Positions 1,447 to 54,236 of a stretch of DNA of 64,000 nucleotides are shown here, piece after piece; the stretch's first letter is position 1, and each line of letters starts with the position of its first letter. This DNA is from a virus. Its lineage: Duplodnaviria; Heunggongvirae; Uroviricota; Caudoviricetes. A program made the translations under genes and the position numbers. The stretch lies in IMG/VR virus record IMGVR_UViG_2645727901_000008; one strand, written 5' to 3'. The notes beneath the pieces were generated by a model. That model was not told the origin of the DNA. It saw only the letters and a list, made by a program, of their open reading frames with translations, and did not search any database.

Positions 1447-1461
1447 GCAGTTTGTGATTTC
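1447..1461 (-). promoter_or_regulatory. candidate late-promoter element GGAAATCACAAACTG (copy 1) followed by CATAAT
   Basis: The 15-mer is identical to the copy at about 60724-60738 and one mismatch from the copy at about 55021-55038; each is followed within 3 nt by a -10-like hexamer. Confidence 0.35.
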
Positions 1462-1571
1462 CAAAATAGTGTCAACCACTTTTTGTGGATTTTATTTTTT
1501 GACCGAAATTTGGCCTAAATCATGTTGATGTAGTTAATTGTTTTTATAACATAAAACTTCATTTTGTTTAC

Positions 1572-2195: not shown

Positions 2196-2215
2196 GTTAC
2201 GCAGCGGAGGCAGAA

Positions 2216-2608: not shown

Positions 2609-2629
2609 ACTGCGTTAGCACTTTGAACA

Positions 2630-2680
2630 TGGCGACAACACATCTTGGTGGCTGCGTTGTCGCTGTATGTTTTTATAATA
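2630..2680 (+). terminator. terminator-like hairpin after the two secreted-protein genes
   Basis: GCGACAAC...GTTGTCGC stem followed by TGTATGTTTTTATAAT. Confidence 0.4.
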
Positions 2681-2696
2681 TAAAGCATTAAAGTTT

Positions 2697-3314: not shown

Positions 3315-4384
3315 TGTGCACTCCATTTTTCAAGAATCATTACGTTTCGAATCGATTTTTCAACCAAATCATTTATAGTTTTTTCTATGGCTTCTTGTGA
3401 CAACCCAGACCATATACCCGTAGGTTTTTCCCATTCAGAGCATAAGTACTGCCAGCTGCTGTTAATAAAAGCATGCATTTCATTGTGGTCGCGAATAACA
3501 AAAGGACGCACATTATCAAAAGCTGATTTCACATCAAGCAAAGGTGTCGGCAATGTCAAACAAGGAGAAATAATCTGCCCACCATTATGTAAGGCTGATA
3601 TCACAGCATTGAACATGCCAACAACTGGATTTTCCACTTTGTTCAAAAAGTCGCTTACAATTTTAACTCTATCTTCTGTGGATGGGTGAGTATAGCTTGC
3701 AGGATGAGAGCCAGCTAATTTGTATAAGAAATCTACCCCACTTTTTCCAATAAATTGGGCACTAAATAGATCTGCAAAATATTCTCTGCAATGATTTATC
3801 CAAATAACATCAGGTAGATTACTCCATTCTGGTCCAGGAAGTGTGCCTTTGTCCTTGGAACGATAGTTAAGACAGGCAAGCTCAGAAATACCTTTGCTAA
3901 TATCAACGAAATGTCCCAATTCGTGATATAAAGGTATAGAGCATAATGGTCGTCTTCTGTACATTTCAGGTAATGAAATCTGAATTAATTCGACATCGAA
4001 TTTGACATTTAAAACTTCGTCAAATAAAGAATACAAATTCTTGTTTACAGACTTAAAATAAAACCCATGCATATCTGGAGATAGGGCTGTGGTTATAAGT
4101 GTTTTTTCACTTATCCATTTTTTACAGGCATCATTTAAGCAATAGACAATCTCGTAGGGAATTTTCTTTGTAGTACTGCCAGTGAAAAAATTAACTGCAT
4201 CGGTGATAAAAAAAGTACAATCCGCAATTATTTTATCAGCAACATTCACATGGTTTTCATAGAGCTTATCCACCGCTTCTTGTAGAACAGCAAGATATTC
4301 ATGCATGTCTTTAGAAAAATAGGGAGATTCTGATATCTCCCTTAGCTTATTTCGAACTAATGTAAGTTGTGTAAATGCAAGCAT
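3311..4384 (-). CDS. HExxH zinc metallopeptidase-like protein, ImmA/IrrE (M78)-like core (gene B)
   Basis: HELGH at residues 154-158 and downstream REYFADLFSAQF resembling the ImmA/IrrE E..AN.FA motif; N- and C-terminal regions have no recognisable domain. Start overlaps the upstream stop (TAATG). Confidence 0.8.
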   Translation of the reverse strand: MLAFTQLTLVRNKLREISESPYFSKDMHEYLAVLQEAVDKLYENHVNVADKIIADCTFFITDAVNFFTGSTTKKIPYEIVYCLNDACKKWISEKTLITTALSPDMHGFYFKSVNKNLYSLFDEVLNVKFDVELIQISLPEMYRRRPLCSIPLYHELGHFVDISKGISELACLNYRSKDKGTLPGPEWSNLPDVIWINHCREYFADLFSAQFIGKSGVDFLYKLAGSHPASYTHPSTEDRVKIVSDFLNKVENPVVGMFNAVISALHNGGQIISPCLTLPTPLLDVKSAFDNVRPFVIRDHNEMHAFINSSWQYLCSEWEKPTGIWSGLSQEAIEKTINDLVEKSIRNVMILEKWSAQ

Positions 4385-4689
4385 TAAATGTACTCTAATA
4401 CATTCCGGGCCATTACGGGTTCTAACATATCTTCGCTAGTTACTTTGGTTAGCACCTGGGCGAGCGCCTTAGTGTGGCGTATCTCTACCGCGAGCGAGAT
4501 GGACTCTCTGTGAGAAGGAATCTGTAATTGATCACCTTTATCTACACTTAAGTTTGAGGCTTCTCTGATCACCTCATAAACCCGTAACTTTAACTGCTGT
4601 GACACTTCTTGTTGAGATGCTATAAGCTGAAGTACAGTCTTGATCAACTTCAAAGAATCAGAAGCTTGCTGAGGAACCGCATAGAGCAT
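4384..4689 (-). CDS. small helical protein of unknown function (gene A, first in operon)
   Basis: 101 aa; strong AAGGAGG RBS 5 nt before the ATG; stop overlaps the start of gene B. Confidence 0.7.
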   Translation of the reverse strand: MLYAVPQQASDSLKLIKTVLQLIASQQEVSQQLKLRVYEVIREASNLSVDKGDQLQIPSHRESISLAVEIRHTKALAQVLTKVTSEDMLEPVMARNVLEYI

Positions 4690-4824
4690 AACCCCTCCTT
4701 TCCCTTATCTATAACCGCTTTCTTTTTTCTGTGTATGTTAAAAGTAGAAGCGGTTTTTACCTTTTGTAATATATATAGTGTCTAAAACTAACTTTGGCAC
4801 TATATATGGCATGATATCTATGTT

Positions 4825-4870
4825 TTAAAGACACAAAAGCTCTGTTAAAACAGAGCTTTTGTGTCTTTAA
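4825..4870. promoter_or_regulatory. perfect 22-bp inverted repeat (46-bp palindrome) in the operon's upstream region
   Basis: TTAAAGACACAAAAGCTCTGTT-AA-AACAGAGCTTTTGTGTCTTTAA, about 140-180 nt upstream of gene A; a second 10-bp inverted repeat (ATATATAGTG/CACTATATAT) lies at about 4771-4808. Confidence 0.5.
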
Positions 4871-5014
4871 CTTGATCATTTTCTCGCTGAAGTGTATGTC
4901 AGGCTTAGCTCATAATCAAGTTGCTTCCAAGCTAAAAATGAGCTAGCTCCCTGAAACACTAAGAGCGGGGTGTTTCATTTATTAGCGTTGGGCCTGACGG
5001 TGTGTAGGTGAATT

Positions 5015-5302
5015 TTAGCTCATTACTCGATAACGACGGGGAATGGAATTCTCCATCAGGCCACGAATTACTCCCGCCTCACGTAGTTCCTCTGTCTCCC
5101 AGTATCTGTTTGTCACCAGATCGAGGCTGGCTATGACCTTGTGCCGGTCATTCGGCATAGCTAATTTTTCTGCTATAACCATCAGTGAAAACTCTTCATC
5201 CAGTAGAATTTGATAGCAGTTTTTTGATAGTTCCACTTCCCTTATGAGACTGAAACGTCGCTGGATTGTGGCAGTAGAGTAAGTGAAATCTATTTTCTTC
5301 AT
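5015..5302 (-). CDS. hypothetical protein
   Basis: 95-aa ORF downstream of the Rha-like gene, same strand. Confidence 0.5.
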   Translation of the reverse strand: MKKIDFTYSTATIQRRFSLIREVELSKNCYQILLDEEFSLMVIAEKLAMPNDRHKVIASLDLVTNRYWETEELREAGVIRGLMENSIPRRYRVMS

Positions 5303-5361
5303 CGTGCGGAGAATCCGATTATTTAGCAGTTAAAGCCCCGGACAGGCCGGGGCAACAGTAA

Positions 5362-6288
5362 TTAACTAACAATCCAGTCCATAGCAACCATATCCTCTGG
5401 CGCTAAATCAATAGCATGGATTTTCCCATCCCGGATAGTGCGCCAGTGCTTCCTTGATCCGCCTTCGGGCCATACCCATACACCTTCAGACCATGAGGCG
5501 CGACGGCATACCGTTGCATATCCACTTCTGATCTTCTCTCTGGCGGTATGCAGTGACAGATTATCTTTTGGGATTTCCGGTAAAGGATGATGGATTGCCT
5601 GAAACAGCCCCATCTTGGGATGATACCAGCGTTTGTTGCGTGGTTCTGCCTCCGACATAACCTGCTTGAAGGCTTTCTGGAAGGGGGCCAGGGCCACAAT
5701 GGAGCGTCGCGCAAGCAAACCATCTGGAGTTAAAAACTCATGCGTATCGGTGGGAATCCGGAAAGCGTTAACCAGGTTGCGACATTTGGCTTCGGTCAGG
5801 CCACATTTCGCCGCCAGCTGGCGGTAGCCAATGTAGCCTTCCGGAATATTGCCTTTCTTTATTTGCTCGAGTGTTTCAGCGACCATCGATACTTGTGCTG
5901 ATACCTCGGCTACCTGGGCATTTACGGCGTTGATCCGGCGTTCATGCTCAAGATGCATTTGCGCCATTTCAGCCAGGATTTCGGCTTTTGATTTTAACTG
6001 TACCCGGGCATTCTCCAGTTCGCGCCAGCGGTCCACCAGCCGGGCGGTGAATTCGGGAGAGAGCTGCGCGACGACGACAATACTATCGCGCTTGCCTTGC
6101 TCGCCTTCGAAGACGTAATAGCTCGCCGGGCGGCCTGCGGTGGGCTTTTCCTCAATTTGAGGAAAAGATATTACGCCCCGTTCCGCCAGGTGTTCAATGG
6201 TGCGTTTAACGTTATCAGGGCGCTTACCTACCAGTTCCGCGATCTCAATGCTGGTCATTGTCGCTTTTTGAGAGATGGACAGATTCAT
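5362..6288 (-). CDS. Rha-family phage regulatory protein (antirepressor-like) fused in frame to a C-terminal DUF2829-like module
   Basis: N-terminal region matches the Rha-like protein at 43508..44215 (SIEIAELVGKR..DNVKRTIE, VFEGEQGKRDSI, YRIPTDTHEFLTP). The last ~70 aa match the separate 66-aa gene at 43311..43511 (CRR.SW..GVW.WP...DW). Confidence 0.8.
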   Translation of the reverse strand: MNLSISQKATMTSIEIAELVGKRPDNVKRTIEHLAERGVISFPQIEEKPTAGRPASYYVFEGEQGKRDSIVVVAQLSPEFTARLVDRWRELENARVQLKSKAEILAEMAQMHLEHERRINAVNAQVAEVSAQVSMVAETLEQIKKGNIPEGYIGYRQLAAKCGLTEAKCRNLVNAFRIPTDTHEFLTPDGLLARRSIVALAPFQKAFKQVMSEAEPRNKRWYHPKMGLFQAIHHPLPEIPKDNLSLHTAREKIRSGYATVCRRASWSEGVWVWPEGGSRKHWRTIRDGKIHAIDLAPEDMVAMDWIVS

Positions 6289-6503
6289 CAGTGCGCCTCC
6301 ACGCAGTTCATCGGCAGATTCCAGTAATTGAGGATCTCCATCGCATCAAGAGTGAAGCGAGCAGCAAAAATGCAGGGTTCTTCGGGAAGGTATGAGCGCG
6401 CCTCTGCTTCGGTAGCAGCCATGACGCAGATATACAGGTGTTTTTGGCAGGAATAGAAACGCCAGATAAATTCAGAATGAGTTGGGGTAGGGATAGTAGC
6501 CAT
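6288..6503 (-). CDS. small Icd-like protein upstream of the Rha-like gene
   Basis: 71 aa; paralog of 44215..44439 (shared EFIWRF.S.QKH and AATE.EARS); AAGGAGG RBS; stop overlaps Rha start. Confidence 0.6.
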   Translation of the reverse strand: MATIPTPTHSEFIWRFYSCQKHLYICVMAATEAEARSYLPEEPCIFAARFTLDAMEILNYWNLPMNCVEAH

Positions 6504-6700
6504 ATTGGCAGCCTCCTTTGACTAAGTTAAGGAGCTACCGCGTGAGGTTCCAATCTCAATGGCGGTAGCACTGACTGGGTTGGAACTACCGGCGTCAAAG
6601 GGAACCGGCCTGCCTTTCGGCAGCCCAGCCAGCACTACCATTGATCTCTGAGCTAAACGCTACGTATGGCTGTGCGATGGCATGACACAAAAAAAGACGC
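6504..6700 (-). ncRNA. candidate c4-like antisense/leader RNA region upstream of icd-like gene (copy 1)
   Basis: Minus-strand RNA contains CCCUUUGAC (about 6594-6602) complementary to GUCAAAGGAGG covering the icd-like SD (about 6512-6522); also a UAGCUCAG tRNA-like stretch. Confidence 0.3.
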
Positions 6701-6754
6701 TTTCGGCGTCTGTGTCGCCTTTGACATTATCCGGGGTTCCAATCCCGGCACCCG

Positions 6755-6777
6755 TTTTTCTAAGGTGCCGTAGAAAT
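6755..6777. promoter_or_regulatory. TTTCTA-N8-TAGAAA palindromic operator-like element upstream of immI-like copy 1
   Basis: cgTTTTTCTAAggtgccgTAGAAATAtacc; a related inverted arrangement sits upstream of copy 2 at about 44770-44800. Confidence 0.35.
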
Positions 6778-6815
6778 ATACCCCACGATAATGCCAGGGC
6801 GCAACAGTCAGTATT

Positions 6816-6983
6816 TTATGCTTTGGCGGATTTCTTCCGGGCTTGCTTGCAGGCGTAGGCCATTGCTTTAGCTTTCACTTCATCCAGCTTCCCGGTGATC
6901 GCTTCTTTTCCGAGAGTGACAAACCAGTCATAGCAACCGCCAGTGATGTTCTGGATTTGAAAGTTGAGGTAGCGAACGGTCAT
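6816..6983 (-). CDS. small basic protein (55 aa), unknown function
   Basis: ATG preceded by GGGGG; product MTVRYLNFQIQNITGGCYDWFVTLGKEAITGKLDEVKAKAMAYACKQARKKSAKA; below track size cutoff. Confidence 0.3.
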   Translation of the reverse strand: MTVRYLNFQIQNITGGCYDWFVTLGKEAITGKLDEVKAKAMAYACKQARKKSAKA

Positions 6984-7302
6984 TTTGACACCCCCAGCGC
7001 GAGTAAAGAATGCAGATTATCGCGTGAGTGGCGGACAACGAGTGATGGGAAAAGACAGTAGCTGTTCATAGTGTAGTGACTCCTTGCTTTCGGAGCCGCC
7101 ATCGACTGTTCCACGGTCTGGTGGCGGCGCAATAAAGGCTGGAACACCGTGAGTCAACGGGGGCTTTTCAGCCACCTATATTGCACCGCCATAGGTATAG
7201 CGGCGGCAATAATACGAAAAACTAAACAGTTTGTCTCAAAAAGTTGACCGGTGTGCCAATCGGTAGTGAATGTACATCGGAGAAATTTACAATTCAACTT
7301 AA

Positions 7303-7320
7303 AATGTTAGAAAACTAATT
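7303..7320 (+). promoter_or_regulatory. operator-like motif copy (AATGTTAGAAAACTAATT)
   Basis: Member of the dispersed TGTTAGAAA(A/T)(C/T)TAATTT family; abuts the stop of 7315..7893. Confidence 0.4.
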
Positions 7321-7893
7321 TATCAATTCAATCGCCATCTGATACAACGTCATTTCATCGGCATTGTGCCGCATGAAATCTGCTTTTCCGCCTATTTTTC
7401 CGTCAGCATGAACAGGGACCAGCCAGGGATATTGTTCTCGGACCTCGGCTGGCGCTGCGTACTGGTGGTGCCATTTACACAAAGGGAGGACATATTTATG
7501 CGCGTTCTCTGCCGTTCTCCCGAAGATATGGTGCAGGGATACTACTGGGCTATGTTGTCCGTGAATATGGCAGGCAATGCAGGGGAGAGTACCGATAGCG
7601 GTCTGTATCCGGCGTTCATCAGCTGTGAGTGATCTGCCCTTCAGGCCGCGTGACGTGCGTGTTTTTTTGGGCGGAGCGGATACAGCTTTATCTTTTCTCC
7701 GCTGTTCATATTGCTTTGCTTTTTCAATTTTCTTTTGCCGATATTCAGGCGATGCGGCTTTTTCTCTCGCTCGCTGCTGCTGGCGTTGAGCTTGTTGAAG
7801 GCGCTTTGCCCTTTGTTCCTCTCGCCAGGCCGGGTCAGCCAATTTTTGCATGGCTTTTTGTCTCTGTTTCTCCCAATAGCTCTGTTTCTGCAT
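7315..7893 (-). CDS. zinc-finger (Cys/His-rich) phage protein with basic coiled N-terminus, HNH/DUF968-C-terminal-like
   Basis: CIACHIHG...SLHHIFGRT...PLCKWHH cluster resembles the C-terminal Cys/His cluster of 11350..12345; flanked on both sides by operator-like motifs in inverted orientation. Confidence 0.65.
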   Translation of the reverse strand: MQKQSYWEKQRQKAMQKLADPAWREEQRAKRLQQAQRQQQRAREKAASPEYRQKKIEKAKQYEQRRKDKAVSAPPKKTRTSRGLKGRSLTADERRIQTAIGTLPCIACHIHGQHSPVVSLHHIFGRTAENAHKYVLPLCKWHHQYAAPAEVREQYPWLVPVHADGKIGGKADFMRHNADEMTLYQMAIELIN

Positions 7894-7952
7894 GATGGCA
7901 GTCTCTTACTTTTCAATGATTTTTCTATGATTGATCAAAACTGTTAGATATT

Positions 7953-7972
7953 CAAAATTGATTTTCTAACAC
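7953..7972 (-). promoter_or_regulatory. operator-like motif copy (TGTGTTAGAAAATCAATT on minus strand) with partner half-site TGTTAGA at about 7942
   Basis: About 65 nt upstream of the 7893 start codon; GTTAGA-N16-TCTAAC inverted arrangement. Confidence 0.4.
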
Positions 7973-8165
7973 AAAACATTAATATCATTCCTGATAACTG
8001 TTTGGAGGACATGATGCTTATAGCTTTAAGTGCGATCCACCAGCCATCTGTGAATGAAATTGGCCTGTTCTATGTGTTGTTTTTCGGGGCGTTGGCGCTA
8101 CTTGAGCTTGGTATTGAGCTTTTCGCAGTGCTTATGTTTTGCGTCACGATTTTGGGGAAATTTTG

Positions 8166-8789
8166 ATGGTGAAACGAGTTTTGAAAATTTACATCGCGGG
8201 GCCGATGACTGGTTATCCAGATTACAACCGTGCTGCGTTTAATGCGAAAGCGAGCGAGCTGATGGCTGAAGGGCATATCGTTCTGAATCCAGCTGTGTTA
8301 CCTGGTGGCCTTTGTCAGAGTGAATACATGGATATTTGCCTGGCAATGGTGCGTTCTGCTGATGCGATCTACTTGCTCAATCGATGGGAGGAATCGATTG
8401 GTGCTCGTGCAGAGCACGCGCTGGCTGAAAAGCTGGGGCTGACTGTAATTTATGAATCACCAACCAACATTGAATGCCAGGTTGCTCCGCATATTTACCG
8501 GGAACTGGTCAATGCGTTACGTGATGTTGCTATTGAATGTCACGGCACGGATCAGCTTCGCGCTCGCTTAAGCCAAACCCTTTCCAGTTACCTGTCTTTG
8601 GCTGAAGGATACAACCTCCGACAGCGAAGAATGGTCAAATTAATCACTCTTTTATCGCAATCCCTTGCAAATGCTGAACCAACCAATCCGCTACCTGGTG
8701 ACGCAATGAATTATCTGAAGTCATGCGGTGTTGTTTCTGAAGATGCAGTTCGTTTTGTGGAGTTTATGTCTCGGAGGATGTCGGCGTGA
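8166..8789 (+). CDS. DUF4406-like (nucleoside deoxyribosyltransferase-fold) phage protein
   Basis: KIYIAGPMTGYPDYN motif; start moved to MVKRVLK with GGGGA RBS. C-terminal ~35 aa resemble 16882..17505. Confidence 0.6.
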   Translation: MVKRVLKIYIAGPMTGYPDYNRAAFNAKASELMAEGHIVLNPAVLPGGLCQSEYMDICLAMVRSADAIYLLNRWEESIGARAEHALAEKLGLTVIYESPTNIECQVAPHIYRELVNALRDVAIECHGTDQLRARLSQTLSSYLSLAEGYNLRQRRMVKLITLLSQSLANAEPTNPLPGDAMNYLKSCGVVSEDAVRFVEFMSRRMSA

Positions 8790-9103
8790 GCTGGCGGGGA
8801 TGGGGAAGGGCAGAAATCATGATACTCCGCCAGTGCGCCGGAACTATGACGGTAGAGAGTATTGGGAAGCTGATCGGTCGTACCGGTGATGCCGTCAGGA
8901 CTAAAGCGCGGGAGCTGGGGATCAGCATGATTCTGAAAGGAGACTTTCATCCGTCAGCCAAATACCGGCAGAGCGATATAGAACTGGCACGGCAGCTTCA
9001 TCAGTGTGGTGTTCCCCGCCGTGAGATCGCGGAAAAACTCGAAATGCCCCTGGGCATGATTAATCAGTACGTTTATTTCGAAAGGAGAGTACATGAAGTC
9101 TGA
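8786..9103 (+). CDS. small helix-turn-helix-like protein
   Basis: Overlapping start/stop with neighbours; SIGKLIGRTGDAVRTKARELG HTH-like stretch. Confidence 0.5.
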   Translation: MSWRGWGRAEIMILRQCAGTMTVESIGKLIGRTGDAVRTKARELGISMILKGDFHPSAKYRQSDIELARQLHQCGVPRREIAEKLEMPLGMINQYVYFERRVHEV

Positions 9104-9518
9104 AGGTTTAACGCCAGAGCAACTGGCGGAGCGTAACGCTCAGTATGTGACGGAAATTTCCCGTCTTGAGAAAGAGCGCGCGGCGCTGGCGGCGGAGAAT
9201 GCAGGGCTAAAGGCGATATGTGATGACTGTCGCAGGTTCATCATGAATGGTGTGCAGATGGGTTATATCAAGGTGCCAACAGCGGAAACAGATCCAGACC
9301 TTGAGACAATACGTATTGCTATATCACCACAAAAGCCCATTCCAGCCACCGATGCTTTTCTGGCTGAAGTCCGGGCACAGGGATTGGAGATGTTTGCTCA
9401 GAAATGTAACTCAAAATCAGAACAGTCGATTGCATCTGATATACGCGATAACTGGAAACTACTCGGTGAACATGCCACTGACTTTGCCGCAGAGCTTCGC
9501 AAGGGAGGGAAACAGTGA
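9093..9518 (+). CDS. hypothetical phage early protein (coiled-coil N-terminus)
   Basis: 141-aa ORF in an operon of overlapping genes. Confidence 0.55.
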   Translation: MKSEGLTPEQLAERNAQYVTEISRLEKERAALAAENAGLKAICDDCRRFIMNGVQMGYIKVPTAETDPDLETIRIAISPQKPIPATDAFLAEVRAQGLEMFAQKCNSKSEQSIASDIRDNWKLLGEHATDFAAELRKGGKQ

Positions 9519-9763
9519 GTAATTCAGCACGACTACAGCTTGGTTTTTCACCGCTATCAAAAACCATCGTGTTGGCAAAAATGCGTGACTTAGGGGATGG
9601 AACAAAACGTCGTGTTGGCAATGATCGCGGTCGTGATGTAACCAACGAGGCCGCTCAACTCGTCTGGCATCTGGTCATGGCAGAAGGCGGTGAAATTAAT
9701 TGGGAGCTGGATGATGGTTCGCGCATGGTATTGAAGGCAGAAAAGCAGGAGCCACCACAGTGA
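9515..9763 (+). CDS. hypothetical protein
   Basis: 82 aa; 4-nt overlap with the upstream gene. Confidence 0.5.
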   Translation: MSNSARLQLGFSPLSKTIVLAKMRDLGDGTKRRVGNDRGRDVTNEAAQLVWHLVMAEGGEINWELDDGSRMVLKAEKQEPPQ

Positions 9764-10053
9764 ATATCGACACCACGATAACGATCGATACGGCCCTCAA
9801 CACAGGTTTGGCCCTGCTCGGTTGGTTTTACATCATGTTCAGTGCGGGGAAGTGGGCGGCCTCTGTTTTTCTAAAGCAGTGGGGAAAGCGCCGCAAACAG
9901 GAGATACGCCAGAAAGCGTTAGAGGCGTTCTATGACGCCTTTGAACTTAGCCGCATTGAGCCTGGCACAACAGCCAGGGTAGCAACAAAAGATGACCTGA
10001 TGATCGTGATGTTCCGACAGGAGAAAGCAAATGGCAGCAAAGCGAATGACTAA
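9760..10053 (+). CDS. hypothetical membrane protein
   Basis: 97 aa; hydrophobic segment LALLGWFYIMF; overlaps neighbours. Confidence 0.5.
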   Translation: MNIDTTITIDTALNTGLALLGWFYIMFSAGKWAASVFLKQWGKRRKQEIRQKALEAFYDAFELSRIEPGTTARVATKDDLMIVMFRQEKANGSKAND

Positions 10054-10255
10054 TCGCGAACTTGTTGATGCCGCGATTGAACTTGCTGGCGATTTTTATT
10101 CCATGATGGGGTACACGCATCGCCCAGGCTTCAAATATTGGGAGTCTCCGCACCCGCAAGAGCAACGGGTATTTCAAATGGCCTGTCGCGCTTTTGAAGT
10201 TATTCGCGGTTCTGATGTGATGGACGCGATTGCTGATTTGGAGGATGAAGAGTGA
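10031..10255 (+). CDS. hypothetical protein
   Basis: 74 aa; translationally coupled. Confidence 0.5.
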   Translation: MAAKRMTNRELVDAAIELAGDFYSMMGYTHRPGFKYWESPHPQEQRVFQMACRAFEVIRGSDVMDAIADLEDEE

Positions 10256-10563
10256 ACACAATTAAAGAAATGCCGGTAGAACGTGATGAATATGGCTGCT
10301 GGACACATCCGGAGTATGAGAAGTTTTGCGCAGGTCGTGAATATATTTCCACTGAGGAATTTGACGCCTGGATGAAGGAAAATAATCTTCAGTGGACTAT
10401 TCGCAGTATGGATGAAGATGATTTTGATCTGGACGCAGCTGGTCCCGATATTGCCGCCTGGGAACCGGAGCGACCAGAAGGTGAAGGCTGGTTTGTTGGC
10501 TCTATTCATGACACTGAAGATGGTCCAGTTTGTATCTGGCTGCGGGAGAAGGTTGCCGCATGA
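10252..10563 (+). CDS. hypothetical acidic protein
   Basis: 103 aa; stop overlaps the phosphatase start (ATGA). Confidence 0.5.
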
Positions 10564-11252
10564 TCCAAGCTATGCATGAAGTGAATTTATATAGCCGTAT
10601 TGATGGTTCTGGCTACAGAAACATATGGGTAGTTGGTGATCTGCATGGTTGCTACACCAGACTGATGTCCGAACTCCATCGTGTGGATTTTGACCCGGCG
10701 CAGGATTTACTGATATCGGTTGGCGACCTTATCGATCGCGGTACTGAAAATGTCGAATGTCTGGAACTATTACAGATGCCCTGGTTCAGGGCAGTAATGG
10801 GGAACCATGAGCGGTTGATGCTTGATGCGTTAAGTCCTGATGGCAACGTGAATAACTGGCTAATGAATGGCGGACAATGGTTCTTCATGCTGGACACTGA
10901 TCAGGAAATATTAGCCAAGGCGCTGGTGGAGCTGGTAAAGCGTCTGCCATATATCATTGAGTTGAACACCGGACATGAAACTATCGTTATAGCCCATGCC
11001 GACTATCCAGGTGGAGAGTACCAGTTCGGTAAGGATGTATCGCTTTTTGATGTTGTCTGGTCGCGCAGTCGCGTCGGTGATTCGATAGATGGCATTGGTG
11101 GAGAAATCACAGGCGCAGATCGCTTTATCTTTGGGCACACACCGGTACGAAGACCAAAAGCATACTGGAATCAGCACTACATAGACACGGGCGCGGTTTT
11201 TTGTGGAAATCTGACGCTAATGCAGGTGAAGGGAGGGCAGCTTAAAGTCTGA
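10560..11252 (+). CDS. serine/threonine protein phosphatase (lambda PPase / NinI-like calcineurin fold)
   Basis: Metallophosphatase motifs GDLHG, GDLIDRG, GNHE present; start moved to MIQAMHEV. Confidence 0.85.
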
Positions 11253-46016: not shown

Positions 46017-47015
46017 TTATCCCCGTCGCGAAACGAAGAGTAATGGGGTAGTATTTTTGCTCTCCTTCGGCGATAACTCCGGCTCTTTCTTGCCTGATAT
46101 CGGCAAGCCATAAGTCGCATTTGCCCCCAGAGATTCAAGCATCGCAGCCACTATGCGAGCATCATCTTCAGACTGCATACGGCAGAGCGCCCGACGCTGT
46201 TCTGCGCTGATAAAAACAGGCAGCTCCTGGATAGCATCACGCAAAATCCTACGGCATTTCTTCGCATCTTCGCCCTGGCTTTCCATCATTGCGGCCTGGT
46301 TGCGTAATTCGTCGCGAAGTTGCATATTTTCCACTTCAAGGAGCATCAATTCTGACTCAAGGGCTTCACGCTGTGCTGACTCGAAAATAGCCTGCTGATT
46401 CTTCATTGCTGAAAAGTGGTGAACAAGATCCGTAGCCGCGTTATCGGTAAAACCTTGTTCGATAAGTGCCGCATGAATAGCCGCGTCGCGCTCTTCTGCT
46501 GATTCCAGCATCAGACTTTTCTTGTCGAGGCTGATATAGTTAGGCACAGTTACGTAATCAAAGCCGTGGAAAGACTTTACCAGGGATACCGATGAATCTG
46601 GACCAGATGTAGCCCACGACCAACCACCAGCACCAGAGTTAATCATGCCCTGAACAATACGCCCGGTGTCTGTATCCAGTATTTCCTGCGTATGAGTAAC
46701 AATGCCGTTGTCGTCAATCGAAATGTCGATAGTCCTGTTTGACGGCACGTTCTCCAATACAACAGGCTTCCCATCTACCATCACAACAGAGACTTCCGGC
46801 AAGTTCAGGCTTTTCGTTTTGTTATAGTGCATCGCCCGGCGACCATGACCGTAATAACCATACATCTCACCCAGCGCGATACGCTCTTTTGTTTCTGGCG
46901 AGTTGAATGTGTCTCGTACCGACTGAATGACGTAATTTCGGTTGTTCTGCGGTGTGTGTTTGCGGATTTTCTCTACCAGGGAGAAGCGATCCGTAACAGT
47001 ATTCAGTGATTGCAT
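46017..47015 (-). CDS. head morphogenesis protein (possible prohead protease/scaffold)
   Basis: 332 aa; directly downstream of the portal-like gene; coiled-coil C-terminal half. Function inferred from position only. Confidence 0.5.
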   Translation of the reverse strand: MQSLNTVTDRFSLVEKIRKHTPQNNRNYVIQSVRDTFNSPETKERIALGEMYGYYGHGRRAMHYNKTKSLNLPEVSVVMVDGKPVVLENVPSNRTIDISIDDNGIVTHTQEILDTDTGRIVQGMINSGAGGWSWATSGPDSSVSLVKSFHGFDYVTVPNYISLDKKSLMLESAEERDAAIHAALIEQGFTDNAATDLVHHFSAMKNQQAIFESAQREALESELMLLEVENMQLRDELRNQAAMMESQGEDAKKCRRILRDAIQELPVFISAEQRRALCRMQSEDDARIVAAMLESLGANATYGLPISGKKEPELSPKESKNTTPLLFVSRRG

Positions 47016-47028: not shown

Positions 47029-48711
47029 TTAATTGCTCATCACAAATTTTGCAAAGTTTATTAACTGTTCTGGCGTCCAGTTTTCCGGATCGTCACCGGA
47101 CGACAACGGCGCGGATTCGTACATACCATGCTCGTTGTTTTGCTCTGATTCATTCGCCTTAAACTCTTTGATCATGGTGTTGAGAGTGTCATCGTCGATG
47201 TGCAACTGCTCAGTGAACAGATAACGCATAAACGCGTCGCTACCAGCCAGTTTCGGGTTGTTCTGGATCTGGTCCATAATTTGGGAGATGACAGCAACAA
47301 AGTTGGCGCGTGCATCCAGTTCTCGGTTTTCCTCTTCCTGGATAGCAGTGTTCATTGAGTTGAATTGCACGTCATAAGGGCGGTTTGTTTCGGTGTAAAC
47401 CTTGCCGTATTTATAAGCGAGGTGAATGTCCAGAAGCCGATAAATAGTTCGCTGGGCGGCCTGTCTGATCCAGTTCGCACGCAATGCAGCCTGGATAGCA
47501 GTTTGCTGCCAGCCGCCTTCTCCAAGCCCTCCGCTCATCTGATCAGCCCAGCCAAGCATTGTTGCGTCAATGCCGAGGCTTGCAGCAAGCTGCCGGAGGT
47601 GAAACATAACGTCTTCGATACCACTGATATCTGCGGGTATGGATTGCGTATCAATGGTGATGCCGTTCTTCCCGTCTCCCATAACAGGTATCAGATGGTT
47701 AAGCACAGTCGGAATAGCGTTGGCATTAATCGACCTTTGCGCCACCAGGTCACTATGACGCTTCAATGCCTGGCTGACGCCACGCGTATAGTTCGCCGCA
47801 TTAACCGGGTCCAGTGTGTTCGTCGTAAGAGCAATCAGGCGGTCAATTTTGGCTGCATTATTTCGCGTTGATTTCAGCGCGGCGAGCGAAGCACATAAAT
47901 TAAGGTAAGGTTCATAGCTGTATTCCAGGAATGAAGTTCCGTAATTCTGCGTCTCCATTAACGGCTTATCAGCCTGATCACTTAACAGTGAATACCCTTT
48001 TGTACCGTAGCTAACCGGAATAACCTTATGCTGCGGCGTCCAATACGGGTTTTTCATGGAAACAAGATTCCACGGTTCGGTTATTACCCTGCGCAAACTA
48101 TGCGTATCCAGAATGTAATCACCACTAAAACCGACCAGCTGGCTACCGCGATAAAATTCCTGGACGAAGTGTGGAAGAGTGTAATAACTGGATTCAATGC
48201 CAGTTATCCCTCTGCCCTGTTCAGCATAAGGTCGGACATAAGACACCCCAAAGATCGCCATAATCATGGCCCATGAAGGAAGTCCGTCATTAATCATTGC
48301 CCCCAAATCAGCTGTTAACTCTTCACACCTACTTACCGCCTCGGCATCGGAACCATCTTTTGGCGAAAGCATGAATGCCAGCCCGGTTTTCTTTGAAGGC
48401 GCAAGCGCATGTGCAATATGAATGTTTAAAGCCGTTGAGATAGTCGGGCTTTTAGCCATCGTTTCCAGGATGTTGTACTTTTGCAGGCGCTCGCCGGGCA
48501 GTTCAGCGGATAAAGAAATTGAATCTGCTGCACTCGTCATGCCATCGCTGTTGCTACCCAGGATGCCTGGACGTAAAGCGGACAGGCCGGAACGAGCAAC
48601 GACACTATGCCCGCTCGTAAAAACGACCGGATCGGCGGGCGTAACATCACCACCGTTGAAGGCTTTCTTCAATGCCGACAGAAAGCCTTTGTTTTTGTCT
48701 TTCGTTGCCAT
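47029..48711 (-). CDS. large virion protein, putative portal
   Basis: 560 aa; first gene of a head operon; function inferred from size and position. Confidence 0.5.
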   Translation of the reverse strand: MATKDKNKGFLSALKKAFNGGDVTPADPVVFTSGHSVVARSGLSALRPGILGSNSDGMTSAADSISLSAELPGERLQKYNILETMAKSPTISTALNIHIAHALAPSKKTGLAFMLSPKDGSDAEAVSRCEELTADLGAMINDGLPSWAMIMAIFGVSYVRPYAEQGRGITGIESSYYTLPHFVQEFYRGSQLVGFSGDYILDTHSLRRVITEPWNLVSMKNPYWTPQHKVIPVSYGTKGYSLLSDQADKPLMETQNYGTSFLEYSYEPYLNLCASLAALKSTRNNAAKIDRLIALTTNTLDPVNAANYTRGVSQALKRHSDLVAQRSINANAIPTVLNHLIPVMGDGKNGITIDTQSIPADISGIEDVMFHLRQLAASLGIDATMLGWADQMSGGLGEGGWQQTAIQAALRANWIRQAAQRTIYRLLDIHLAYKYGKVYTETNRPYDVQFNSMNTAIQEEENRELDARANFVAVISQIMDQIQNNPKLAGSDAFMRYLFTEQLHIDDDTLNTMIKEFKANESEQNNEHGMYESAPLSSGDDPENWTPEQLINFAKFVMSN

Positions 48712-48795
48712 GAATCACCGCGAATTGTTTCCAGTTTCGCGGCAGCATAATCAGTATGTGATTTGATAGGAGAGTTTTATTGGTGCTGTTAATGA

Positions 48796-49128
48796 TTACT
48801 TACACGCTTCCCTGCCCACATAGTCAGCGATGGAACCACTTACAATCCCCCCCATTTTGGGATCAGGTTTTGAATTTTTCATCTGTTCAAGCGTCTCCCC
48901 AGAACCAAGATACTTCACTTCATTTGTCATGCAATTATATATTCTCTTCGAATATGCTGTCCCAGATGGGCCTTCCCTTTTTGTAATGATAGTTTTATAT
49001 TCACCTTCACGACCAATATCCAGCACTGTATAAGTAGCTTTTGGATCAGAAGGGATTTTTATCTTATAGGGCGCAGCACAAACTGATGCAGAAGCTAATA
49101 AAGCACAAACCAGGATTATATTTCTCAT
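48796..49128 (-). CDS. secreted protein, unknown function (AT-rich island)
   Basis: Signal peptide MRNIILVCALLASASVCAAP; low GC. Confidence 0.55.
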   Translation of the reverse strand: MRNIILVCALLASASVCAAPYKIKIPSDPKATYTVLDIGREGEYKTIITKREGPSGTAYSKRIYNCMTNEVKYLGSGETLEQMKNSKPDPKMGGIVSGSIADYVGREACK

Positions 49129-49172
49129 AACTATACTCCATGTTATAAATTATCAAAGCTAAGTAAGTAAAA

Positions 49173-49730
49173 CTAATCTGGATCAACAATAAGTTGTGAA
49201 ACCTTCGCTGCAAGTCTTATATAGCGTTCAGCTTCATTTCTGGTGATTTCAAAATCCAGAAAGTGCGCGGCTTCATTTCTTAGCGAGCGAAGCCGTTTTA
49301 ACAGCAAAGCAGCGGAATCTTCAAGTTTTCCTTCTTGAATCAACCAGTCAATGAATAGTTCTGGATTCCGTTTCGGCTTTAACCCTCCCTGTATAAAACC
49401 AGAGCGCCCGGCAGCCTCCTCTACCATCAACCATGACTCCATAATAGCAGCTCTAGGTGAAAAATCAGCAATTCTCTCTAATTGTGCGATTTTATTTATA
49501 TATTCAGAGTTATTATTACCATTGTTAATATTTTTATTCCCAACTGATGCATCTGTTGCTAATACTTCTGCTGCGGTTAGTCCCGCATTAAACTCAGCTT
49601 CAGCTGCTCCAATCTTGAATCTACTCAGACGTACTATTAACTCCTTAATATCAACCCCATACTTATTAACAAACCACACAAACACCAATGGCCATGCAAG
49701 AGCTGAAACCAAATCTGTAAATGATGACAT
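49173..49730 (-). CDS. membrane-anchored protein with HEPN-like R-x4-H motif
   Basis: N-terminal TM helix (LVSALAWPLVFVWFV); C-terminal LRSLRNEAAHF fits the HEPN Rx4-6H signature; AT-rich gene. Confidence 0.55.
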   Translation of the reverse strand: MSSFTDLVSALAWPLVFVWFVNKYGVDIKELIVRLSRFKIGAAEAEFNAGLTAAEVLATDASVGNKNINNGNNNSEYINKIAQLERIADFSPRAAIMESWLMVEEAAGRSGFIQGGLKPKRNPELFIDWLIQEGKLEDSAALLLKRLRSLRNEAAHFLDFEITRNEAERYIRLAAKVSQLIVDPD

Positions 49731-49855
49731 CGGTTATCCTCATTCATTATATTCTCAGCTAGTTTACATATTATTAAACAGGAACAAAAATGAATTATGC
49801 GCCCATCTTCAGATATGTTATGAACGCACAGAAAGAGCATTAAGTTACATTGATG

Positions 49856-51232
49856 TTACCCAACAGAGGTTGACTCAAACATAGAAAAAATTAACCCTTT
49901 ACCTTCGCCAAACTCAGTCTCAATTTCATCAGAAACGGCAGATAAAATGCTACGCAGATCGACATCTCCGCCGCCGAACATATCGCCTAACGCTTGTTGT
50001 TGGTGAATAAGTTCATCGTTAATTTTTTGCGCCAGTTTCTTGAAAGCGGCCCCCATTCGCTTAGCGCTTCGGTTGTTGGCAACAATAAACAGAGCAAGCG
50101 CTTCTGCTTCCGGAGTGCTATCTCCAAACAATCCACGCTGTGCGATCACCTCTTCTACTGCCTGACCGTTATCTTTTGCTTCACGAACAAGGTTAATTGC
50201 TTCCTGGAGTGCTGCTATCGCCTGTGTATCCAGGCCATTAACCTGCTCTATACCGTCCACTAAGCCTGTTACTGCGTCATGGTGAGCGTCGCCAGACAGC
50301 GACTGCATTTGCGCAAAATCGCTGGCTGCCGTATTTAATGCGGTCAGGATATTACGCATTTCCGGATCTGGCTCTTCCGACACTAGCCGAACAAGCCTTT
50401 CATCCTTGTACGCTTTGGCAAAAATTGCATTCTGGATGCGATCGATAAGCTGTTTCGTGGGACGCCCATCGGCAGTAAGCAAGCCTGCCGTCGCTGTATC
50501 GCCAATTTCGCGCAAAAACGCACGAATAAACGCATCATTGGACCGCGCCAGCAGATTTCCATCATCTGAAGGATTAAATAGCGCCATGACGCTCTCAGTG
50601 AGAAATTGCGCATCCGCATACGCTTTTTCACTTGCTGCCATCTCTTGCAGATCGCTAATGTTTGAATCGCGGGCAAATTGAGCGCGGTCTACATCTGTGA
50701 GTCTTTCTCGCACTAGTACGGGCATAGACATTTGCGAAATTTCGTCAGGATTCAGACCAAACTCTTTCGCATGGTCGATCAGGTACTGGCGATACTCATC
50801 CGCCTGTCCTTGCTCATAGGCACGCCAGATACCCATACTCCTTCCGTTGCCGGATTCAACAACGTTGTCCGGACCAACTATCGGCGCTCCGTGGCTGCTC
50901 ATACCGGAATCCGTTAATTGTGCCGGGCGTAAATTGGAGGCAATACGGTTAACCTGGAGTTTGCTGGATAGCCGGGTACGATCTCGTGGTTGGAGTTCTT
51001 CCGGGAAGGCCGGGTTAATCATACCGTCAAGGTTGTTCGAAATGATCAGACTGCTGGCATCAACGACCTTAAAAGCCGTCTTTACCTCTGCACCTTTGCT
51101 GGTGACTACGTAGCTACTTCGCCCCAGGCGTGTTTCTTTCCTCTCTAATGAAGAAACCAGAGCAATGACGCTGTTAATATCTGCGGCCTCGGAAAGCGCA
51201 GAAGTAACTGATTTGTTCAAAATACACTCCAA
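49856..51232 (-). CDS. hypothetical virion-associated protein (Dar-operon-like region)
   Basis: 458 aa; start uncertain; no motif recognised. Confidence 0.55.
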   Translation of the reverse strand: MECILNKSVTSALSEAADINSVIALVSSLERKETRLGRSSYVVTSKGAEVKTAFKVVDASSLIISNNLDGMINPAFPEELQPRDRTRLSSKLQVNRIASNLRPAQLTDSGMSSHGAPIVGPDNVVESGNGRSMGIWRAYEQGQADEYRQYLIDHAKEFGLNPDEISQMSMPVLVRERLTDVDRAQFARDSNISDLQEMAASEKAYADAQFLTESVMALFNPSDDGNLLARSNDAFIRAFLREIGDTATAGLLTADGRPTKQLIDRIQNAIFAKAYKDERLVRLVSEEPDPEMRNILTALNTAASDFAQMQSLSGDAHHDAVTGLVDGIEQVNGLDTQAIAALQEAINLVREAKDNGQAVEEVIAQRGLFGDSTPEAEALALFIVANNRSAKRMGAAFKKLAQKINDELIHQQQALGDMFGGGDVDLRSILSAVSDEIETEFGEGKGLIFSMFESTSVG

Positions 51233-51314: not shown

Positions 51315-51683
51315 TTACCCGGCATAACCGTTGGCTTTCACCCAGCTTATGGTCTGTTCTTTAGCCTGCTCCAACGTAAGGAACTCGCCAACATAGTTTG
51401 AGATCCCACGCAGCGCATCAATAAATTCCATTTGTGTGGACTTTGTGAACACACCGCCCAGGAAGTCAGTCACTATCTTAGGGACTTCATCTACAACAGG
51501 ATCAGTCTGTTGTTGCGGTTCCGCTGCCGGTTGCGCGGCAGTCCCCAGGCCCAATTTCAGCATCACATCAACAATCTGCTTACCAATGGTGACGCGTTGC
51601 AATACTGGCGCAGTTTTCTGCGCCTGCATTAGATCTGATAGCTCTTTACCTAATTTCAGGCGGTCTAAAACAGAGATGGTCAT
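51315..51683 (-). CDS. hypothetical protein
   Basis: 122 aa; stop/start overlap with the upstream gene. Confidence 0.55.
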   Translation of the reverse strand: MTISVLDRLKLGKELSDLMQAQKTAPVLQRVTIGKQIVDVMLKLGLGTAAQPAAEPQQQTDPVVDEVPKIVTDFLGGVFTKSTQMEFIDALRGISNYVGEFLTLEQAKEQTISWVKANGYAG

Positions 51684-53608
51684 TAAGCACCTCCCTGCTG
51701 AATTTCAGCCAGAATGTTGATCAGGTAGTCAACTGCTGCACCCACAGTGGCTTCGTTCTCGTCGTATCGACCTGCACTGATTAGAGCATTTGCTGCTTCC
51801 TGTACATGATCAAGTTCAGTACTGATGACCGTCAGATCGCGGGGTGTAAACTGCTCCGGAACGGATTTCAGGTACTCCAGCGCTTTATCTGCCTCCTGAT
51901 CAGCTTCACTTGCTGATTCACCAGCTTCTTCTGGCTCCGGCTCCTGTTCTGTTGCTGGTTGTGGTTGTGATTCCGGATCAACCACATGCTCTGTTTTTAC
52001 TTCGATTGAATGATTTTGAAGGGCGTTATACACGTCCATAATGAAAAGGTTCTCCCCATCACCAAGTGGATACGCCACGTTTGGAAACGCTTTGCGGAAA
52101 AGAATTTTCACTTGCGCCTTGAATGTTTTCAGGTCACTGCCAAACAGGTCTACATAGCCATCAATATGTTTCGACATGCTGGACACAACCAATTGGCCTG
52201 CAAAATCTTTCAGCTCATCTTCATCAGGAAGATAGAGCAACTCGTACTGGCTGACTTCTTCATCTGTCAGTTTACGGTCATACGTAATGATACCGTGACG
52301 AGCATATTCGTAATACTGATCAGCCTGGTCAGGACGATCAATCACGGCTTTATTTCCATCCGGCACAGCACCAACACCAGCCGGGCGAGATTGAAGTGCA
52401 TAGTGGTATTTACCTACATCCTGGCTCTCTTGTTGTGATACTGGGTTCGTCTCGGGGTCTGTCTGTGGTGGTTCGGAGTCTTCCTGCTGGCCTGGTAACA
52501 CATCAACTTTATATTTATCTGCGTTATGCTCTCGGTAGGCTTTAAGTAATTTGGTTGCAGCATCTGCCAAACTGCCTCCTTTGACAGCACTGGCATCAAT
52601 ACTGAATTTACCTTCAGGTGCTACTATCGTAACGAAATTGTCACTGCCGGACGTGACATAATTAACTTCAGCGCCATTATCCAGCACTGTTTTTCCGTCA
52701 ATGGCAAGATTATGTTTTACATGTCGCAGCTGGTCACTAAACGCTCGCTCTTTCGTTTTTTCACCTTTAGCAGACAACAATTTATCGCGTTTTGCTTGTA
52801 ATTCCTCGTTGATGGCTTTCTGGGCATCAAGTTTTTTTTGCATCTCCGTAAGAGCAGCACGCTTTTCAGTCAGCCCACGTTGCGCAACTTCCACCTGATC
52901 AATCATTATTGACCGTTCTTCTGCCAGTTTATCTGCTTCATTGAGATAACTCTCAATATCTGCCTTCATTTTGTCCTGGCGCTCTTTTGCTTTCTTAAAT
53001 TTTTCGCTGTTACGCTCAATCAAATTAGATAGCGCCTGGCATACCTGGCTTAAAGAAACATCTCTCCCACCAATCGGGGCGACAACGTGAGTTACGTTAC
53101 GTTTATTAAGTAAAAACTGAAATGCAACAAGCTCGTCGTTACTCTTTATTTTTGCCCCGTCAGATGTTGGAGAGTGGAAAATTATGCTTGTACTCTGCCC
53201 GTCAGTAAGCGGTATCTGCGCGGTCAAAACAGGGATATTAGCTACCCGACGTACACGACCGATAATCGCACCACCAATACAATTACGTCCATTTTCATCG
53301 GCCCCGGCTTCATCAGTCCCTGCCATAATATTCGTACCATTCAGGCCACGATTCAGCGCACGGACGAAAGCTCGCATTGTTTGAGCTAACCGAATTCTGG
53401 TTGTAGTTATGGACTCAAACATAGCTTCGTCAGACACAACCAGAATTTCATTGCCCATATAGGCAAGCTCAATATCTTCTAAGGTCGCCGCCTCAAAAAT
53501 CAGGTCATCTTCGCTTAATTCTTCTGAAGACCAGCGACTTGGCATATAGCCGGGGATCGTATCAGCAAAAGTAGACTGAATATTAATTCGTAAAGGATTG
53601 TTAATCAT
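51683..53608 (-). CDS. large hypothetical protein, candidate DarA-like internal head/antirestriction protein
   Basis: Start moved to MINNPLR (GGAGG RBS 6 nt upstream); 641 aa with coiled-coil centre and acidic C-terminus; downstream of the lysis-like genes as in the P1 darA operon. Assignment is by context only. Confidence 0.55.
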   Translation of the reverse strand: MINNPLRINIQSTFADTIPGYMPSRWSSEELSEDDLIFEAATLEDIELAYMGNEILVVSDEAMFESITTTRIRLAQTMRAFVRALNRGLNGTNIMAGTDEAGADENGRNCIGGAIIGRVRRVANIPVLTAQIPLTDGQSTSIIFHSPTSDGAKIKSNDELVAFQFLLNKRNVTHVVAPIGGRDVSLSQVCQALSNLIERNSEKFKKAKERQDKMKADIESYLNEADKLAEERSIMIDQVEVAQRGLTEKRAALTEMQKKLDAQKAINEELQAKRDKLLSAKGEKTKERAFSDQLRHVKHNLAIDGKTVLDNGAEVNYVTSGSDNFVTIVAPEGKFSIDASAVKGGSLADAATKLLKAYREHNADKYKVDVLPGQQEDSEPPQTDPETNPVSQQESQDVGKYHYALQSRPAGVGAVPDGNKAVIDRPDQADQYYEYARHGIITYDRKLTDEEVSQYELLYLPDEDELKDFAGQLVVSSMSKHIDGYVDLFGSDLKTFKAQVKILFRKAFPNVAYPLGDGENLFIMDVYNALQNHSIEVKTEHVVDPESQPQPATEQEPEPEEAGESASEADQEADKALEYLKSVPEQFTPRDLTVISTELDHVQEAANALISAGRYDENEATVGAAVDYLINILAEIQQGGA

Positions 53609-54236
53609 GCTCATCCTCCAGGCGCGCGATTTCTTCTTTAAGAGCACGTGTCTTAGCTACTTCCTGAGACAAGGCAGCTTTAACGTTACCCGTATCTTGC
53701 ATTACTTTGTCTGACTTGCTCTGGAGTTTAGACAGTTTGTCGTTAGCATTAGCGATATCTTCACGGAGTGCATCACGTGATTCTTTCGCTTCAGCTAATT
53801 TCTGAGCGTTAGATTTAACTCCCTGCCGCTTCTTATTTCCGTCATCAATATTTTTTGCTGCACGAGCAAGTTTTCGAGCTAATGACTTCTGGAAAGAAGT
53901 TGCTCCGCGATTAAATAAAGCCGCAAGAGATTGCCCCAAAGCCGACATTGTTTTTACTGGCTTGAACGGTACTGTTTTACCATTCAGTTTGATCCCAGAT
54001 ATATCACCGGTATCGTTAACCTGAACTTCCATTGTCTGTTCATCAATACCAATAAGGGTAAACGTGCGCGTCATGATCCCATCTTTCTTCCTGCCATTAC
54101 TTGCAGGGATCACCCTCGCTATCTTGTAACCACCTTTGCTGATTTCTTTGACGAGTTTTGCCAGCCCCTTTTCGTTTAACTCATCATAATTAAGAAGAAC
54201 ATAATTATTCTTATTTGACATCCCAGTCTCCTTCAC
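53601..54236 (-). CDS. hypothetical protein with coiled-coil C-terminus
   Basis: 211 aa; likely GTG or internal ATG (MSNKNNYV) start. Confidence 0.5.
   Translation of the reverse strand: MKETGMSNKNNYVLLNYDELNEKGLAKLVKEISKGGYKIARVIPASNGRKKDGIMTRTFTLIGIDEQTMEVQVNDTGDISGIKLNGKTVPFKPVKTMSALGQSLAALFNRGATSFQKSLARKLARAAKNIDDGNKKRQGVKSNAQKLAEAKESRDALREDIANANDKLSKLQSKSDKVMQDTGNVKAALSQEVAKTRALKEEIARLEDEHD

Follow-up and report, generated by a model that had tools for sequence, protein, structure and literature searches.

The 64,000-nucleotide stretch of DNA analysed here (the window; IMG/VR record IMGVR_UViG_2645727901_000008) is a D6-like phage-plasmid of the P1 family. It carries an accessory cassette, which encodes a protein of 185 amino acids (aa), ORF185, and a small secreted protein, ORF110. 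The cassette is bounded by the portal gene prt and by ddrB, with which the dar anti-restriction/internal-head-protein operon ends. ORF185 can be described with high confidence as a membrane-anchored HEPN-domain protein. On balance, we lean towards the reading that it is a single-gene anti-phage RNase module of the abortive-infection type, because its homologues occur as partnerless cassettes in PICI-like satellites, defence islands, integrons and prophage slots. The cassette is an accessory insert (moron) of polymorphic occurrence and foreign appearance; it was horizontally acquired and does not belong to the fixed gene set of the phage. In RefSeq ORF185 is already annotated as a DUF4145 protein; the analysis adds the exact extent and the frequency of the cassette, a confirmed fold and motif, the finding that the family is broad and uniform, and the cargo-type contexts of its members. 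The region is 97.6% identical at the DNA level to Escherichia phage D6, a P1-related plasmid-prophage, and ORF185 is 98.4% identical to the D6 protein. The central features are the following:

48765-49874: accessory cassette of 1,110 bp, 38.6% guanine plus cytosine (GC), which replaces 51 bp of the empty site
49173-49730, minus strand: ORF185 (D6 orf24), 185 aa, a protein with a Trp-Pro (WP) transmembrane (TM) helix and a DUF4145-type HEPN domain
49668-49718, minus strand: N-terminal TM helix, residues 5-21, TDLVSALAWPLVFVWFV, with the conserved pair W13-P14; best 17-residue Kyte-Doolittle (KD) window 1.71
49176-49514, minus strand: HEPN (DUF4145-like) domain, residues 73-185, predicted to be cytoplasmic
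49263-49280, minus strand: catalytic-type motif R151-N-E-A-A-H156 (Rx4H), translation checked

Architecture and family of ORF185

In ORF185 a TM helix with a Trp-Pro pair is followed by a helical stalk (about 40 residues), an Asn-rich linker and a HEPN domain that is predicted to be cytoplasmic. An AlphaFold2 (AF2) model based on the family alignment (pLDDT, the score of the predicted local distance difference test, 83) contained a single long helix from residue 2 to residue 60, a disordered Asn-rich linker (64-72) and a five-helix domain (73-182), in which the all-alpha four-helix core of the HEPN fold was present. The lower entries in the list of fold matches were the sacsin HEPN domain (7.7), Csm6 (7.4), HepS (7.2) and the HEPN toxin 5yep (7.1); published values comparable to this list are 8.7 for RAZR (PMC13017515) and 9.9 for Tha (PMC11087260). 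The Trp-Pro pair lies inside the hydrophobic helix and was found in 44 of 46 homologues. Across the family the 20 residues that follow the helix contain a median of five lysines or arginines, and the median before it is zero; therefore, following the positive-inside rule, the N-terminus is predicted to be outside and the C-terminus with the HEPN domain to be in the cytoplasm.

An earlier note, which had been made from the letters of the DNA alone, had proposed an N-terminal TM helix and a HEPN Rx4-6H signature within the stretch LRSLRNEAAHF for the 185-aa protein, and both held. In an alignment of 46 sequences (25-59% identity) S91-P-R-A-A95, E98, W100, E104, R151, A154 and Y170 were invariant, while A12-W13-P14, N152 and H156 were conserved in at least 90%. 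Because it is conserved across the family, RNEAAH is a true Rx4H motif and no chance match, and it has the polar residue that follows the arginine in the HEPN motif. DUF4145 and HEPN_RiboL-PSP were the only Pfam families matched by ORF185, both below the curated cut-off, and 37 of the 46 family members matched DUF4145 at E<=0.01 (best value 3.3e-7). Among the six further Pfam families with matches to members, Swt1 (18 members), RiboL-PSP (8), MAE_28990, HepT and Csm6 are HEPN families, and the sixth is DUF4559 with one weak match. No defence model was found with PADLOC and NCBIfam, where the sole match was a weak one to the N-terminal DUF4145 region of type I HsdR, and the PHROGs family of ORF185 has no assigned function.

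The family is large and uniform. A search of 5.8 billion proteins yielded 95 relatives of 177-210 aa with 25-59% identity from Enterobacterales and many other phyla. A profile search of 1.84 billion cluster representatives yielded 7,282 clusters at E<=1e-3, including 627 at E<=1e-30; the best 150 representatives were mostly about 190 aa long and matched over their full length. The protein was intact and of full length in 12 plasmids (98-100% identity).

Genomic contexts of the homologues and the proposed function

ORF185 homologues are lone single-gene cassettes in variable settings, without a conserved partner. In Klebsiella and Raoultella satellites the gene order was int-alpA-(hicB)-primase (D5_N/Pox_D5)-[gene]-protease/capsid, and the homologue directly followed the primase and an iteron-rich origin and had a terminator of its own behind it. 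An IMG/VR contig showed this layout as well (primase-[gene]-major head). A Cronobacter defence island contained a homologue among a CAP12-type TIR protein, AbiTii, a resolvase and ApeA, and in Salmonella and E. coli an integrative element carried it at its tRNA-Thr/proA end, where an integrase and a 468-aa protein were its neighbours. The homologues of Methylobacter luteus and Pseudoalteromonas amylolytica were flanked by attC-like repeats (...CTAACA...GTTAGGC) and thus represent integron cassettes. On other viral contigs it was found by P2-type baseplate and fibre genes or adjoining integrases. The immediate neighbours included CBASS cyclases, NACHT, GIY-YIG and Vsr proteins, IS200 transposases and integrases. 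A conserved partner or antitoxin was sought by all-against-all clustering of 594 neighbouring open reading frames (ORFs) from 86 loci; none was revealed, and the largest cluster comprised four closely related loci.

Several additional features were observed at these loci. In three Klebsiella loci (L019-L021, about 860-11250) an int-alpA-primase-[TM-HEPN]-protease/capsid satellite lies inside a prophage head module, between the portal and the Clp-protease/capsid genes, and it looks like a satellite that has integrated into a prophage. The 468-aa neighbour on the tRNA-Thr island (L003 8660-10066; L120 7447-8853) has no Pfam match on record and contains ...DMRNWASAAH..., an Rx6H motif, so that, judged from its sequence, it may be a second, unrecognised HEPN protein. 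The attC-like repeats are located at 8545-8644, 9340-9439 and 11581-11680 in L038 and at 7342-7374 and 8568-8666 in L059, where the integron cassette apparently comprises two ORFs, with one for 173 aa ahead of the HEPN gene. A distant homologue (P0085; L025 7609-8142) is encoded directly upstream of a dCTP-deaminase-like gene; the window has a dCTP-deaminase-like gene too, although 45 kb away, and this is probably a coincidence. About 3 kb upstream of the homologue of Vibrio sp. EA2 four direct repeats of about 468 nt with 88-nt sub-repeats were found (L092 3181-4937).

The genomic contexts appear to back the link to abortive-infection and toxin modules that the earlier note had drawn. Under the preferred reading, ORF185 would be made in the lysogen and would sit in the inner membrane as a latent RNase. 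A signal from a competitor, either a phage protein or a disturbance of the envelope or membrane, would be sensed via the WP helix and the stalk and would change the oligomeric state of the protein. Two HEPN domains would then build a composite active site, and the activated protein would cut tRNA, rRNA or mRNA, so that translation would stop. The infection would be aborted, and sister cells with the plasmid-prophage would be protected. ORF185 would act alone, without an antitoxin or a partner gene. We thus infer, for the protein, RNase activity and expression in lysogeny as well as the trigger and the abortive outcome of the infection. It is tempting to go one step further, although this is clearly more speculative, and to regard the WP helix and the stalk as a true membrane sensor, and the family as a widespread single-gene immune module that relays an envelope-level infection event to a HEPN RNase. 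Candidate events would be the injection of the genome, a depolarisation of the membrane or a phage protein that targets the membrane, and in that case this would be the first membrane-gated HEPN defence.

Several observations count against an active defence function. The match of ORF185 to DUF4145 (PF13643) reached 20.0 bits (E=7.3e-4, profile positions 4-85 of 88) and is below the gathering threshold of 23.1, and the hydrophobicity of the TM helix is only moderate. PADLOC gave no match to ORF185 at E<=1, the PD-T7-4 model included, and in the literature on the group of WP-TM + DUF4145 proteins no experimental work was found. The neighbourhood survey was performed without a background control, and the "enrichment" of defence genes is therefore qualitative only. 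The weakest link is expression. The upstream region is the following:

49731-49855, minus strand: AT-rich leader of 125 nt, which arrived with the cassette and contains a Shine-Dalgarno (SD) sequence and candidate sigma-70 promoters

SD sequences precede both genes, GAGGA 6 nt before the ATG of ORF185 and GGAG 7 nt before that of ORF110. The leader contains a candidate promoter, ATAACA-16-CATAAT at 49821>49794 with a score of 9/12, and a TATAAT 8 nt before the SD sequence, but candidate promoters were no more numerous than expected from shuffled sequence. A search upstream of ORF185 for sigma-70 promoters and for P1-type late promoter boxes (AAGTTACTT-N4-TANNNT) gave nothing convincing. No terminator was predicted on either side of the cassette, which lies within the co-directional late dar and head genes, and ORF185 and ORF110 may be expressed late rather than in lysogeny.

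Four alternatives to the single-gene defence RNase were weighed. The best of them, which we nevertheless consider unlikely, is that ORF185 is a stimulus-responsive regulator of RNA turnover or stress that benefits the host, or a factor in competition or addiction between elements, i.e., an anti-plasmid, Ishtar-like protein. Stimulus-dependent RNA degradation has been proposed for such proteins on computational grounds, and the WP helix is also fused to receiver domains (PMC3710099); furthermore, the DUF4145 protein Ishtar1 blocks conjugative plasmids, and the carrier of ORF185 is itself a plasmid. However, the distribution over satellites, integrons and prophage slots is patchy and cassette-like, a pattern that conflict systems typically show and housekeeping regulators do not, and Ishtar differs from ORF185 in its C-terminal domain and has no TM helix.

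The position of the gene would fit a late protein that serves the lytic programme of D6 in host RNA shut-off, lysis timing or counter-defence, as it is co-directional between the late dar operon, which starts with lydA/lydB, and prt-pro, with no predicted terminator on either side. Such a role is improbable, however, since ORF185 is missing from about 88% of the D6-like elements and from P1 and P7, its homologues also occur in non-phage contexts (integrons, chromosomal islands), and its composition is foreign. Even lower is the probability that ORF185 and ORF110 form a two-component system of an effector and an envelope sensor or immunity protein. The two genes are co-directional with a gap of 44 nt, they are always together in D6-like carriers, and both products are linked to the envelope; yet among 119 loci their homologues are adjacent only in D6-like elements, each family has contexts of its own, and the folded domains of the two proteins are in different compartments. 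Finally, a catalytically inert HEPN-fold protein, an MtlR-like regulator or scaffold, is very unlikely, because R-N-x-x-x-H is conserved across the 46 sequences down to 25% identity, whereas the MtlR family keeps Rx4-6H in only about 60% (PMC3710099, Table 1).

If ORF185 is an active defence gene, this would assign a function to the large, uniform family predicted in 2013, support the view that phage-plasmids carry exchangeable immunity cargo, mark the dar/prt junction as a variable cargo site in D6-like elements, and offer a minimal system of 185 aa for the control of a HEPN RNase by a membrane anchor. If it is inactive or only regulatory, the cassette would be an ordinary moron. The polymorphism between D6-like elements with the island and those with an empty site is a natural isogenic comparison, and these elements are in circulation among E. 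coli and Salmonella of livestock and clinical origin.

The cassette, ORF110 and the flanking genes

The limits of the cassette were determined by comparison with the empty-site plasmid pEHP91H1-2 (L016), to which the homology stops at 48764 and restarts at 49875. The earlier note had described an AT-rich island at 48780-49860 with two minus-strand genes between head genes; the island, both genes and their position, flanked by ddrB and prt-pro in the same direction, were verified, while the edges had to be moved outwards to 48765-49874. The 51 bp that the cassette replaces include the last 12 or so codons of ddrB, and the last six codons of ddrB in the window come from the cassette, so that DdrB ends with ...FSMFESTSVG in the window versus ...FAMFENSTVLNNCSMEN in the empty site. 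The GC content of the whole window is 47.3%, compared to 38.6% for the cassette; in 300-nt windows it was 0.36-0.42 across 48650-49999 and about 0.46-0.55 in the flanks. At third codon positions it was 0.31 and 0.32 for the two cassette genes, in contrast to 0.47-0.53 for prt, pro and ddrB. Among all 1,110-bp windows of the sequence the cassette belongs to the lowest 3.2% in GC content, and three other blocks are equally AT-rich. The cassette ends have neither terminal repeats nor a target-site duplication, tandem repeats were not found, and a search for an RNA antitoxin or structured RNA in the cassette gave no Rfam match at E<=1.

Only a minority of the D6-like plasmids have the cassette. 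In 120 D6-like plasmids of PLSDB that match the flanks it was present in 14, ddrB was joined directly to prt in about 100, and three contained an IS200/IS605 element. It was detected in 9 of 5,426 complete E. coli genomes, always on plasmids. The copies of different carriers are 99.5-99.9% identical, while the backbones are 96-98% identical. Between the window and phage D6 the two genes differ at 4 nt; all differences are nonsynonymous, and three of them are in ORF185, in the stalk and the linker. The IS200/IS605 element (tnpA and tnpB; L018 2184-4008, CP057742 and two sister plasmids) occupies the same 64-nt gap between ddrB and prt as the cassette, and because of this insertion at the same spot the junction is regarded as an insertion-tolerant variable site of D6-like elements. 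An apparent divergent allele (50% identity) at this site of pSa1423-90k, which hinted at cassette swapping, was rejected, because that record is full of broken ORFs and is of low sequence quality.

The remaining genes of the region are the following:

48796-49128, minus strand: ORF110 (D6 orf23), small secreted/periplasmic protein, 110 aa
49075-49128, minus strand: signal peptide of ORF110, residues 1-18, predicted cleavage between VCA and A, read from the sequence
51683-53647, minus strand: darA
51315-51683, minus strand: ddrA
49856-51232, minus strand: ddrB, flanking gene, ParB-like (PF18763, E=1.9e-42), C-termini compared with the empty site
47029-48711, minus strand: prt, flanking gene, portal (phrog_1497 portal, E=7.9e-229; D6 annotation)
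46017-47015, minus strand: pro

The second cassette gene had been said to encode a secreted protein, in agreement with the signal peptide of ORF110 (MRNIILVCALLASASVCA, with predicted cleavage before A). The 108 relatives of ORF110 (35-68% identity) are from Enterobacterales, Pseudomonas, Xanthomonas and others, and C66 and C109 are invariant. Some distant homologues have a lipobox instead of this type of cleavage site, and most homologues are not lipoproteins. ORF110 has no match in Pfam, NCBIfam or PADLOC, its sole match in PHROGs is phrog_13843, a family without assigned function, and when its profile was searched against PDB sequences, the only match was a spurious one to a short repeat. 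Its AF2 model (pLDDT 91.6) is a curved beta-sheet with two short helices; the fold neighbours are weak, with a phage "Surface-adhesin protein E" at a TM-score of 0.59, and by this weak match the modelled fold would resemble that of Haemophilus protein E. In prophages of Serratia, Pseudescherichia and Pantoea the gene for the ORF110 relative is immediately upstream of that for the tape measure, and in a Pseudomonas prophage it directly follows a cI-like repressor gene. Because adjacency to an ORF185 homologue was restricted to D6-like elements, the two genes are treated as independent cargo, and ORF110 is regarded as a separate, disulfide-bonded periplasmic prophage moron. Cor/Llp-type superinfection-exclusion proteins are prophage morons that act at the envelope, and as a guess ORF110 could also act there, e.g., in superinfection exclusion.

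The genes lydA, lydB, hdf, darA, ddrA, ddrB, ORF185, ORF110, prt, pro and repL are all encoded, in this order, on the minus strand. In P1 the dar operon ends with a ddrB gene for 995 aa (L002 5254-8241) and hxr, and prt-pro is located elsewhere; neither P1 nor P7 has a counterpart of ORF185 or ORF110. In all D6-like elements DdrB has about 460 aa and comprises only the ParB-like N-terminal half, and the D6 lineage is devoid of the putative metallopeptidase half of DdrB and of hxr. It had been considered that the cassette replaced the C-terminal half of DdrB, which has 458 aa in the window; this was rejected, since DdrB of the empty site also has only 461 aa.

A hairpin (CCGCGAA-N11-TTCGCGG, 48718-48742) lies upstream of prt, with its end 7 nt from the start codon. 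Its RNA fold has -15.3 kcal/mol (z = -2.4), and the plasmids with an empty site have CCGCAAA...TTTGCGG instead, i.e., a compensatory change from G:C to A:T. The hairpin may serve the portal gene as a signal for translation or processing. A second AT-rich block, a run of three minus-strand genes, is present at 2697-4689 of the window and encodes a 101-aa ORF, a 357-aa ORF with HELGH (an HExxH motif) and no Pfam match, and a dCTP-deaminase-like protein of 209 aa (PF22769, E=1.3e-30); PADLOC gave no match for any of the three. Beside it, at 1572-2608 on the plus strand, two signal-peptide proteins of 207 and 130 aa without a Pfam match are encoded. The block and these neighbours may be further accessory or defence cargo.

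Comparison with known systems

The single-protein system RAZR/PD-T7-4 is an abortive-infection RNase with a zinc finger and a DUF4145 HEPN domain, for which the R and H residues are required and which cleaves single-stranded RNA and blocks translation (PMC13017515). RAZR is soluble, has an N-terminal Cys4 zinc ribbon where ORF185 has the TM helix, and assembles on phage portal or ring proteins. ORF185 contains no cysteine at all and thus has no Cys4 zinc finger, and therefore it is not RAZR. Prophage-encoded single-protein HEPN defences, latent RNases that are triggered by structural proteins of the incoming phage, are Tha of S. aureus phages (PMC11087260) and HepS of Gifsy-1 (PDB 9oij/9oik). 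In contrast to ORF185, both are members of other HEPN subfamilies and lack a membrane anchor, and auto-immunity by Tha is prevented by the dedicated inhibitor Ith, while no such inhibitor is evident for ORF185. Another DUF4145 protein, BxaP, acts in BREX-associated defence and, like RAZR and Tha, is a proven abortive-infection RNase.

HEPN-MNT type II toxin-antitoxin systems (e.g., PDB 5yep) have an adjacent nucleotidyltransferase antitoxin gene, whereas the neighbours of ORF185 are ddrB and ORF110, and no MNT family was among the 25 listed of the 107 families matched by neighbours of the homologues. ORF185 is therefore not a HEPN-MNT toxin, and its membrane anchor also sets it apart from these modules.

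Validated HEPN-based anti-phage cargo includes "HEPN-TM" of phage-inducible chromosomal islands (Fillol-Salom et al. 2022, Cell 185:3248) and the integron cassette "Esos" (bioRxiv 10.1101/2024.07.02.601686). ORF185 homologues reside in the same kinds of elements, i.e., satellites as for HEPN-TM and integron cassettes as for Esos. Both might belong to the same family as ORF185. HEPN-TM is said to be a two-gene system of a HEPN protein and a TM protein, and it would then differ from ORF185, in which both parts are fused in a single gene.

The closest known relatives are the WP-TM + DUF4145 proteins, which were described computationally as the first of three membrane-associated HEPN groups (Anantharaman, Makarova, Burroughs, Koonin, Aravind 2013, Biol Direct 8:15; PMC3710099). 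The Trp-Pro pair of ORF185 lies inside its TM helix and its HEPN domain is predicted to be cytoplasmic, and, like the Vibrio cholerae representative (gi 153825856), it is a standalone protein of about 190 aa with an N-terminal Trp-Pro TM helix and a cytoplasmic Rx4H HEPN domain. ORF185 thus shows no structural difference to this group, to which the present analysis adds a location on a phage-plasmid as well as the occurrence of homologues in satellites, integrons and defence islands.

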